From: a virus
Lineage: Duplodnaviria > Heunggongvirae > Uroviricota > Caudoviricetes
Length of the DNA: 16,488 nt
IMG/VR virus record: IMGVR_UViG_2778261569_000010
Coordinates: 1 to 16,488 of that record
Strand: one strand, 5' to 3'
In this document: positions 6,001 through 9,000 of the stretch, piece after piece
How positions within the stretch are numbered: position 1 is the first letter of the stretch
Layout of the letters: each line of letters starts with the position of its first letter
Program-made: the position numbers

Positions 6001-9000
6001 ATCGCGGATGTCAGCACGAACTTTCTCAGGGTTGATGCTGAACAGCCATCCATTTAACTTCTTCAAAGGAAGGCAGAGTAGCTTACGAAGCTTACCATCA
6101 GCGGCAACCATGTTCATATGAACACAGTTGAATTTGCTAATCTGCTTCATGAGTTTTGTTTGCTGCGTTGACCAGCTCATTCCAAGGTTTTCAACGATTG
6201 GCTTCATCGCAACATATGCAACTCCGGCAGCCATGGCGGTGATAATTTGCTGACCGTTGAATGGTACGTAAGAGGTGTTCACTGCTTCTAAAATTGCTAT
6301 ACTATTCATGTTGGTTTTTCTCCACAGATTTACTGACAACCGAAGCCCTGACTGTTCCCGCAGTTGGGGCTTCAACTTTACGCGCCAATGCGCCCTTCCT
6401 TCTTAAAGCTTTCCATTACTCTCTGATAAATCTCAGAGTTAACAGACCGACCATTCTCTTCCGCCACCTTGCGTACCAAATCCAATACTTCTTTAGGCCA
6501 CCGCAAATTGAACTGCGGCATCTTGCTCATTCCTTTCATATTCACCTCACAATATAGGTCCACCGTGGACCTATTGAGAATATAGTAGAGTGCTTCTATC
6601 ATGTCAATACACTAACTTGGAGTGATGGCATGGCTAGAGATGATCCGCACTTTAACTTCCGTATGCCTATGGAAGTAAGGGAGAAATTAAAATTCAGGGC
6701 GGAGGCGAATGGGAGATCAATGAACTCCGAGTTGTTACAAATCGTCCAAGATGCTCTATCAAAACCATCGCCTGTGACTGGATATCGCGACGATGCAGAA
6801 CGACTCGCTGATGAGCAGTCCGAACTTGTTAAGAAGATGGTGTTTGATACGCTGAAGGATTTGTACAAAAAACCCACCTGACGGTGGGTTTCATAATTAG
6901 ATTTCTGGTTTCATTCTTCCAAAAACCTTTTCTATTCCTTTTTCGTATTCTTCTCTTGTCTCACTCATCGCTGCGACCCCAAGAAGCTTACCGATATGCT
7001 GACGCAAAGCCTTGACACCAATTTCAGAAAGGAACAGATGCAACTTATCAGATTGTTTTCCGTTCTCGTCTCGGCTGGCTCGAATCTGTTCAAGGATTTT
7101 ACCTTTACTCTTTGCTAGCGGGGTGTATATCTGCATGTTGGTTAGCTGCCCAAAACGAATAGGCCGTCCTTTCTCTGGCCTATTCAGGCCGTACAGTCGA
7201 TACCACTCCTCGTATAGCTCATCTGGAAATTCCTTTTCATATTGACGAGCCTCTTCACGAACAAACGCTTTGAACTCGTCAATGACAGCCTGAACTTCTG
7301 GACGATAACCAGCAAGCGCATACGCAACCCCCTTAATTCCCGCCTTAGCGGAGGCATTAATAAGTCTCTGTGCTGCGGCGGCTGCCTTTAACCGTGATTG
7401 TGGTAGATCGTCATTATCTTTGGCTTCTATTAGTGCCCTACCAATATCAACAATTGCTGTAATGTCATAACCTAACGCTTGATGAACGGTTTTAGACTTC
7501 GAAGTAAGTTGAAATTTATAGGGATTTTCCATTTTTCGCTGCAATTCTAGATCTCGGTATTTGCTCATATACTGAGCGCCAAGCAGTTGATCTAAATCCC
7601 TGGCATGTTCACCAATCCCTAGCAACTGAGATAATCCAGTTTTCGTAACAACGACAGTTTTCGACTCGTCATCCAGTACATAACATTCAGCATCAATGCC
7701 AAAATCATCTAAAAAGTTACCACGATGAGTTGCCCTGAGAATCTTACTTTTCCATCTTGCAGCAGCTGCTTTCTTTGCTATTTCAGAACGCTGCTCTTTA
7801 GTCAGCGACTTTGCGCGAGCGATCCCGCCCTTAGCTTTCCCTTCGCCACTTTTCTTTTCAGTCATAATGCAAGCACCTTTGTTGTGATTTATGCTTGCAT
7901 TATATACACTGTGCACACATACAAGCAAGCATAAAACTAAAACAAAATGCTTGCATTACAACCGCGCTACTCCAACTACACATTATCATCTGGTATCCTG
8001 CTCAAAACTAAGGAGGTTGGTGTGAAGCAATTTCTTGCTGCTATGTTCTTATTCATATCTTTTGGGGCTACAGCAGAGTGCTGGGTCGTTGGAGATATGC
8101 GCGGAATAAGCTATTCAGAACGAAATAATTTCCATCCGGAAGAAGATGGTTTTAGTGGAACATTCATCATTAAGACAAGCGGTGAAGATGCCAGCATCAC
8201 ATATTCTGGGACAGATGCGGGCGGCATGGCTTACAAAGCATTGTCTAAAAACTCCATCATAGGAATCGGCGCGAATGGCGAAACTCAACGCGTTATCGAC
8301 TCATGGGTAATACATCCTACTGGAACAGTTTTAATGTCAAAAACCATTTCCGGTTATGGAAATATGGATTCAACCAAAGCTTTTGTTGGAAAAGTAAAAA
8401 GAAAATGTTAGCGATTGAATCCAATTTCCCATACGTTACTGCTGTGTTGCCTCAGTAGCAAACAGCGGTCTGATGGCATTCGCAGCGTTATTTAGCGCTC
8501 TTTCATAGGCTGGTGTTCCTGCTTTGGTGTTTGCCAAACGAAGAAGCATATTCCTTGCGGCTTTGGACTCATACAAACGCATCATTGCACCAAAGCCAGC
8601 CTCAAGCCCCATTGATACTCCAAGAGTCGCAGTTGCGCCAATCGTCCTTATCCTGTTGGCTTGTGATTGCCCCGTCTGAGTTACTACATTTGCGGTGTCT
8701 GACCTTGCTGTTTGCTGTAGAACTTCATGAAGAGCATCAAGCTCTTTCATGTGCTTTCCAGAAAAAATAGTGTTGTAAATTTCACCGCCTGACTGAGATT
8801 TAAGCTTATTAACTTCAGTGATGAACTTGGCTGGAAAGTCACCGGCCTTTTCCGCTATTTTGCTGACGTAAGCTGCACGCATAGCATCTTTCCCTTTATC
8901 ATCCAATGCGCTCCAGATTCGTTTCACGTCAGATGGCTTTCTGCTTAATACAACGGTATTTATAAGTTCAGGACTGGCTTCACTGCTTGCCTTGTTGAGC

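Follow-up and report, generated by a model that had tools for sequence, protein, structure and literature searches.

A divergent Hex-family gene in the sieA cassette site of a P22-like prophage and its possible role in periplasmic superinfection exclusion

Several phages encode small envelope proteins that stop the DNA-delivery machinery of an incoming phage, and T4 Sp (spackle), T4 Imm and HK97 gp15 are alike in this concept. The helical protein Sp comes from a lytic phage; its target in the periplasm is a virion-borne lysozyme. Sp is listed in PMC11436027. Closest to the gene treated here are two other systems. The hex gene of phage 434 was named for 'heterologous exclusion': the account in PMC3564112, which cites Susskind and Botstein (1980), is that P22 is excluded from Salmonella lysogens of lambda-imm434 unless they are hex-. 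SieA of P22, the one characterised occupant of its slot, stops DNA injection by way of the gp16/gp20 conduit (PMC10883804; a paper that makes no mention of Hex). We analysed 16,488 nucleotides of a tailed virus (Caudoviricetes; IMG/VR record IMGVR_UViG_2778261569_000010, positions 1 to 16,488; this whole stretch is called the window below), which carries a 129-codon gene that we name hexL, for Hex-like. By its sequence hexL adds a divergent member to the Hex family, and by its position it lies in the sieA cassette site of a P22-like prophage. We propose, with moderate confidence, that its product is a periplasmic superinfection-exclusion protein interfering with DNA delivery by P22-like phages. 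As a prophage exclusion moron hexL would be of a recognisable kind; what is added here is the tie between Hex, SieA and an uncurated family of putatively exported proteins.

hexL, its Hex relatives and the sieA slot

The gene and the elements discussed with it lie in the window as follows.

8022 to 8411, plus strand: hexL (Hex-like gene), 129 codons and a TAG stop, GTG start; from translation, PHROG match and intact alleles
7991 to 8024, plus strand: sieA-type leader TGGTATCCTGCTCAAAACTAAGGAGGTTGGTGTG, which includes the Shine-Dalgarno (SD) sequence AGGAGG at 8011 to 8016 and the GTG start
8022 to 8075, plus strand: signal peptide MKQFLAAMFLFISFGATA, codons 1 to 18, predicted signal peptidase I cleavage after A18
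8076 to 8408, plus strand: mature domain E19 to C129, 111 aa, predicted to form a soluble, closed, nine-stranded beta-barrel
8079 to 8081 and 8406 to 8408, plus strand: Cys20 and Cys129, at the two ends of the predicted barrel

hexL is a real gene, as an earlier sequence-only reading of the window had supposed. The 84 copies collected (from the window, phage records and, for the most part, IMG/VR loci) represent 40 distinct alleles, and all 39 full-length (390-nt) alleles are intact. Across the allele set the variable sites at the three codon positions number 46, 31 and 102, and pairwise dN/dS is about 0.1 to 0.28; purifying selection acts on hexL. The protein matches phrog_2651 (function unknown) with E 9e-61 and shares 98.5% identity with orf129 of Salmonella phage Emek; that ORF occupies the same genomic position and is annotated in the 129-aa form. 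Scans of hexL against Pfam, NCBIfam and PADLOC gave no significant match, the two NCBIfam matches being at chance level (E 0.06 to 0.1) and far under the curated cut-offs. In the literature we found no paper about the hexL protein, Sf6 gene 38 or Hex being exported.

We take the GTG at 8022 to 8024 as the start because it follows a strong SD (with TTGGT as the 5-nt spacer), because alleles and homologues with a different leader have ATG at the equivalent codon (MKLIIAMAF...), and because conservation between alleles reaches only about 37 nt 5' of the GTG. The 129-aa open reading frame (ORF) with an AGGAGG-N5-GTG start, as first read, is thus borne out by translation, SD and the starts of homologues. 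A misplaced start codon that would leave the protein without a signal peptide was also considered, and both the GTG start and the signal peptide were upheld. A longer ORF of 154 aa, beginning at ATG 7947, was rejected: it has no SD and begins inside an operator-like repeat, its upstream part is not kept across alleles, and the same 26 codons are fused to an unrelated protein in the annotation of phage 611R6. To judge by these comparisons it is an artefact of the open upstream frame. For the identical stretch of E. coli strain ECONIH6, RefSeq annotates a shorter, 122-aa form; on our own reading this starts at ATG 8043 and would lose the basic n-region.

A tblastn search of phage genomes with hexL returned Emek and ST-35 and, in addition, full-length matches of 27 to 28% identity in phages 434, lambda-imm434, HK446, HK633, Sf6 (gene 38), Sf101 and others. 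The homologue in phage 434 carries the annotation 'repressor protection protein', i.e. it is Hex. BLASTP aligns hexL with 434 Hex at 27% identity over 129/134 aa (E 4e-12), and hhalign over 128 columns with a probability of 98.4% (E 7.5e-15); the alignment takes in the signal peptide, the ECW that follows it and a C-terminal STK(A/S)FVGxVxxxC. On these alignments hexL is a full-length, distant homologue of Hex. Hex of 434, Sf6 gene 38 and the unnamed ORFs by cI in HK446, HK633 and Sf101 share with it their size and a predicted signal peptide followed by x-C-W; with 434 Hex it has in common the C-terminal FVGxVxGxC motif and the same predicted barrel, and both are accessory genes of enterobacterial lambdoid or P22-like prophages. 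They differ in their place, the 434 gene being downstream of cI on the PRM transcript and hexL between the immI region and gene 16. Wherever the record of a Hex-type match has an annotated neighbour, the match adjoins a repressor gene, and in 434 and Sf6 it lies directly downstream of cI; in 434, Sf6, HK446, HK633 and Sf101 alike the family member is at the moron site downstream of or beside cI. The position after cI is a feature of the 434 locus and not of the protein family.

The family is larger than these phages suggest. A profile search of 1.8 billion representative proteins recovered 126 clusters, nearly all of 120 to 140 aa, among them the Hex cluster P0143 in its truncated form (E 6.5e-4). 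The family is uncurated: Pfam, NCBIfam and PADLOC lack an entry for it, and phrog_2651 holds close relatives. Statistics given below for the family were drawn from 67 diverse members, hexL included. A Pfam scan of these 67 gave no family at E <= 0.01, save one chance-level match to an unrelated baculovirus family. The members that were looked up belong to Gammaproteobacteria and are all labelled 'hypothetical', except for one that UniRef labels 'Lipoprotein'; a profile scan of genome contigs returned a single locus, in Symbiopectobacterium. A genetic exclusion locus of 1980, 434 hex, is in this way linked to an uncurated family of about 126 clusters of predicted exported beta-barrels. Close relatives of hexL are present in 146 of 5,426 complete E. 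coli genomes, so that hexL is common enough to matter for phage susceptibility; the leader is present in 215.

The second line of evidence is the slot itself. The 34-nt leader at 7991 to 8024 matches the 5' end of P22 sieA at 97% identity and abuts the annotated P22 sieA promoter; when the window, Emek, P22 sieA and one E. coli sieA are aligned, the leader is common to all and divergence begins directly after the GTG. The leader is likewise kept in most of 82 hexL loci, with the sequence farther upstream diverging. In a survey of 80 IMG/VR viral loci whose hexL relatives are 88 to 99% identical, the gene is convergent with gene 16 in nearly all, and the upstream neighbour varies. P22 SieA and hexL thus share slot, orientation, leader, SD and GTG as well as convergence with gene 16, and in P22-like prophages either can stand at this place: in E. 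coli elppa4, sieA lies exactly where the window has hexL, after the same leader and beside the same module with a P63C-domain gene. In phage 611R6 the same leader precedes a membrane-anchored (transmembrane) coiled-coil ORF unrelated to hexL, and elsewhere it is found at gene 14 of epsilon34 and at hkcB/hkcC of HK620. Going by these alignments, the leader with its SD and GTG acts as a recombination junction, and the site is a cassette position for unrelated ORFs; being swappable, the P22 sieA position can be mined for new exclusion genes. hexL as a homologue of SieA was ruled out, since there is no sequence relationship between the two proteins (hhalign probability 0.2%) and SieA resides in the inner membrane, in contrast to the hydrophilic mature part of hexL. 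By analogy, hexL is presumably expressed like P22 SieA and for the same purpose.

Predicted export and fold of the product

The N-terminus of hexL, MKQFLAAMFLFISFGATA/ECW, has K2 as basic n-region, a hydrophobic core (best 9-residue Kyte-Doolittle mean 2.89) and A16 and A18 at the -3 and -1 positions. These are the features of a Sec signal peptide with an A-x-A site, ATA/EC, at which the protein would be cleaved; they match the signal peptide that had been read at the outset, and all 67 family members share the architecture. The stretch ahead of the conserved Cys has a median of 19 residues, with a basic start in 65/67 and a strongly hydrophobic run in every member; Ala or Ser stands two residues ahead of the Cys (-1 of the cleavage site) in 60/67, and a small residue four ahead of it (-3) in 55/67. 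Beyond the signal peptide hexL has no further hydrophobic segment. Positions C20, G28 and G123 (hexL numbering) are invariant, W95 and C129 are conserved in more than 90%, and the number of Cys in the mature part is 2 or 4 in every one of the 67. Among the family members aligned there are no conserved residues of catalytic type, as would suit a binding protein.

The mature part of hexL is of 11.9 kDa, 32% Gly+Ser+Thr, with a GRAVY of -0.31 and 24 charged residues among its 111. Structure prediction, which the sequence-only reading had suggested together with a fold search, gives a confident model: a soluble closed beta-barrel with a pLDDT of 94.7 for the mature domain, preceded in the AF2 model by a helix at 2 to 15. 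The fold search was less informative, its relatives being generic only, and a PDB sequence search with the family profile gave nothing at E <= 1. In the model the barrel has several strands of just 5 to 7 residues and is probably stapled by a Cys20-Cys129 disulfide.

The short strands, the hydrophilic composition, the terminal Cys pair and the KRKC C-terminus point to a soluble periplasmic barrel and not to an outer-membrane protein. It is therefore very improbable that hexL is an outer-membrane-embedded or lipid-anchored surface protein which, like Lom/Ail, Cor, Llp or Bor, masks or inactivates a receptor and so prevents adsorption. Strands of 5 to 7 residues are too short to span the membrane; a GRAVY of -0.31 with so many charged residues does not suit an embedded barrel, and the C-terminus, ...KRKC, has no terminal aromatic beta-signal in a protein whose termini are predicted to be stapled by Cys. 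No outer-membrane-protein Pfam family matched hexL or the family members. A lipid anchor is excluded by the Glu at -1 of the hexL Cys (A-T-A-E-C), a position at which 26 of the 67 family members have Glu and a further 6 have Asp. P22-like phages, moreover, adsorb to the O-antigen, and masking of this by a 12-kDa protein is unlikely. Two specific candidates were accordingly set aside, a lipoprotein of Cor/Llp/Bor type (the lipobox [LVI][ASTVI][GAS]C is lacking) and a small outer-membrane barrel of the OmpX/Ail/Lom or NspA kind (short strands, absence of a beta-signal, no profile match, and a fold similarity that is generic).

The conserved export signal of the family, as predicted, also sits badly with the role published for Hex, in which the protein works in the cytoplasm as 'repressor protection', binding the prophage repressor, blocking its RecA-stimulated autocleavage and so lowering spontaneous induction. 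In favour of such a role are that hexL is a true homologue of Hex and that several results are reported for Hex: hex- lysogens release about 30-fold more phage, and only in recA+ cells; the 61-residue fragment sHex partly complements in trans (about 7-fold); and in vitro the fragment inhibits the RecA-stimulated cleavage of repressor, both that of 434 and that of P22 (PMC3564112). The proposal rests, however, on that fragment, E43 to N103 of a 158-aa ORF (PMC3564112). E43 is the first residue past the predicted signal-peptidase site of 434 Hex, ANS/E, and the end of sHex aligns with N77 of hexL, so that sHex would comprise only about half of the predicted barrel. This coincidence of the experimentally determined N-terminus of the 'active fragment' with a predicted signal-peptidase site makes the objection to a cytoplasmic mechanism a testable one. 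A Sec signal peptide together with an even Cys count, as in all 67 members examined, is typical of proteins of an oxidising compartment. Toxicity on overexpression is common among exported proteins. Overexpressed full-length Hex is toxic, and export was never considered in that study, in which the words 'signal', 'membrane' and 'periplasm' occur 0 times (PMC3564112). Finally, hexL lies outside any repressor operon, in the sieA slot, and some other family members are also far from any repressor. We regard a cytoplasmic role for hexL as improbable, and keep it in consideration because the complementation in trans that sHex gives, though partial, is a real observation.

Annotation helps to conceal the export signal, since start truncation in many public records (122-aa hexL, 103-aa Hex) weakens or removes the signal peptide. 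The hex gene of phage 434 is at 2429 to 2905; the E. coli members of the Hex cluster, among those listed, are mostly of 103 aa, begin at an internal Met and have the signal peptide removed. One such 103-aa sequence is on at least 1,000 contigs.

Proposed exclusion of P22-like phages and a possible benefit to the host

Four observations together support the exclusion reading: hexL is homologous to Hex, it lies in the sieA slot behind the sieA-type leader, its predicted export signal is conserved, and the family recurs at moron positions. The idea of the sequence-only reading that such a protein may block related phages gains support in particular from hexL being homologous to 434 Hex and occupying the P22 sieA slot; its description as a phage moron adjoining the ejection-protein genes likewise stands, hexL being a prophage accessory gene convergent with gene 16. 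From these we infer a course of events that extends to leader-driven expression, export, the disulfide, the exclusion phenotype and the molecular target. hexL would be an accessory gene that replaces sieA in the P22-like prophage and is probably expressed from it. Sec would export its product, cleavage would follow after Ala18, and a soluble beta-barrel of about 12 kDa would fold in the periplasm, with its ends tied by the Cys20-Cys129 disulfide. There, like 434 Hex, it would most likely protect the lysogen from superinfection by P22-like phages, by binding a component that is exposed in the periplasm while DNA is delivered (gp7, gp20, gp16, the needle or a virion-borne cell-wall hydrolase) and so stopping the trans-envelope conduit from forming or working; the effect would be one of binding, not of catalysis. 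In concept this resembles T4 Sp, T4 Imm and HK97 gp15, to none of which homology of hexL was detected in any library. hexL is predicted to be all-beta and is prophage-borne, in contrast to the helical Sp of a lytic phage.

A wider proposal we put forward tentatively, as one that may well prove wrong: the Hex family could be an unrecognised class of soluble, disulfide-stapled periplasmic exclusion barrels that capture ejected gp20, gp7, gp16 or needle of incoming P22-like phages and form the soluble counterpart of the inner-membrane SieA, found in the same swappable slot, with the published RecA/repressor role an artefact of a signal-less half-barrel fragment.

Family members recur at classic moron sites in temperate phages that are unrelated. 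A second P22-like phage has, in the slot adjacent to gene 16, a tandem pair of diverged Hex-family genes (3359 to 3745 and 3778 to 4164), made up of a 48% identical relative and a second gene that matches the family profile (hhalign 99.9%). In two lambdoid prophages the remote members are opposite-strand morons between the lysis cassette and the terminase, and other remote members adjoin integrases or a resolvase.

Several points weigh against the exclusion reading. A sigma-70 consensus scan of 7700 to 8600 found no full promoter, and expression of hexL in lysogens is consequently assumed by analogy with sieA; the stretch TGGTATCCT (7991 to 7999) is possibly an extended -10 element. hexL is without a PADLOC match, and the fold searches with its model, by giving only generic barrels, provided no link to a known inhibitor. 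Three remote members lie in chromosomal contexts that do not look like phage: one between the atp operon and a gene for homoserine O-succinyltransferase (Pfam HTS), one close to Tse2/Tsi2 and one within an array of small genes that are unrelated. Since some members are in such ordinary contexts, the ancestral role of the family need not be anti-phage. Last, the only biochemical study of Hex assigns it the cytoplasmic role discussed above (PMC3564112).

The three chromosomal contexts are also what speaks for the main alternative to exclusion, namely that hexL is a factor of benefit to the host (lysogenic conversion), either a periplasmic inhibitor or immunity-type protein, directed for instance at host lysozyme, type VI effectors, bacteriocins or incoming cell-wall hydrolases, or a small ligand-binding barrel. 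Genes for host fitness can occur as morons at the lysis-terminase junction, lambda bor being one, and this too counts in its favour. No MliC/PliC, Ivy or other Pfam family was found in any of the 67 members, however, and hexL itself has no match at E <= 0.01 to the Pfam profiles of the MliC/PliC (including Brucella PhiA) and Ivy lysozyme inhibitors; the resemblance in structure is generic. No genetic phenotypes are reported for a family member but exclusion of P22 and prophage induction (PMC3564112), and both concern phage. In P22-like phages the gene is strictly tied to the sieA slot and leader, and this points to conflict between phages. We consider a host-benefit role unlikely on balance, though deserving of attention ahead of the cytoplasmic and surface roles. 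An immunity reading of the type VI secretion kind for family members rests on two weak contexts.

The surrounding prophage and the operator-like repeats

From Pfam, PHROG and Rfam assignments the window is read as the late/immI end of a P22-like (Lederbergvirus-type) prophage, with the following layout.

396 to 1568, minus strand: D-Ala-D-Ala carboxypeptidase gene, dacD in the most similar genomes
2258 to 3325, plus strand: O-acetyltransferase (Pfam/PHROG)
3366 to 5327, minus strand: tailspike (Pfam/PHROG)
5407 to 6375, minus strand: Ant (Pfam/PHROG)
6310 to 6377, plus strand: sar antisense RNA (Rfam, 92 bits), located where arc and ant meet, as in P22 immI
6378 to 6602, minus strand: Arc (Pfam/PHROG)
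6599 to 6877, minus strand: 92-aa ORF without family match
6897 to 7865, minus strand: gene of a 322-aa P63C-domain protein (PF10546, E 7e-14; phrog_2384, E 2e-104), divergent from hexL
7864 to 7958, no strand: operator-like repeats of the P63C module, two inverted pairs, upstream of the conserved leader
8436 to 10277, minus strand: gene 16-type ejection (DNA transfer) protein (phrog_770, E 3e-278), convergent with hexL across a 24-nt gap
10274 to 11689 and 11700 to 12395, minus strand: gene 20 and gene 7 ejection-protein homologues, by position and size, with head-completion genes next

The sequence-only reading had proposed that hexL and the 322-aa gene are co-regulated through shared operators. 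The repeats themselves are real. The first pair, ATAATGCAAGCA-N16-TGCTTGCATTAT at 7864 to 7903, abuts the ATG of the P63C gene, and the second, GCAAGCAT-N14-ATGCTTGC, is at 7925 to 7954; sites resembling ATGCTTGCAT number four within the 90 bp from 7867 to 7956, against two elsewhere in the 16.5 kb window. Yet among 80 related loci only about 10 have the P63C gene upstream of hexL, and the co-regulation is not supported. The module of P63C gene and repeats also adjoins sieA (in elppa4) or an unrelated gene (in phage 611R6). Because it travels without hexL, and because conservation stops about 37 nt upstream of hexL, the repeats belong to the P63C module and not to hexL. The P63C gene and the 92-aa ORF appear, from the gene order, to extend the immI operon upstream.

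Residues 70 to 331 of the gene 16-type protein also match phrog_29864, 'transglycosylase' (E 2e-124). If that match is real, an enzymatic region of the ejection protein that acts in the periplasm would be a candidate for what a periplasmic inhibitor targets.

The stretch from 6800 to 8500 is 100% identical to E. coli ECONIH6. For the whole window the most similar genomes are E. coli O111 prophages (O111:H8, O111:NM, O111:H2 and O111:H-), O111 being a serogroup known from enterohaemorrhagic E. coli. The end of the prophage adjoins the D-Ala-D-Ala carboxypeptidase gene, and a tRNA scan found none in the window. The O-antigen-type acyltransferase gene at 2258 to 3325, just past the tailspike, is likely, from its family and position, to be a serotype-conversion moron.

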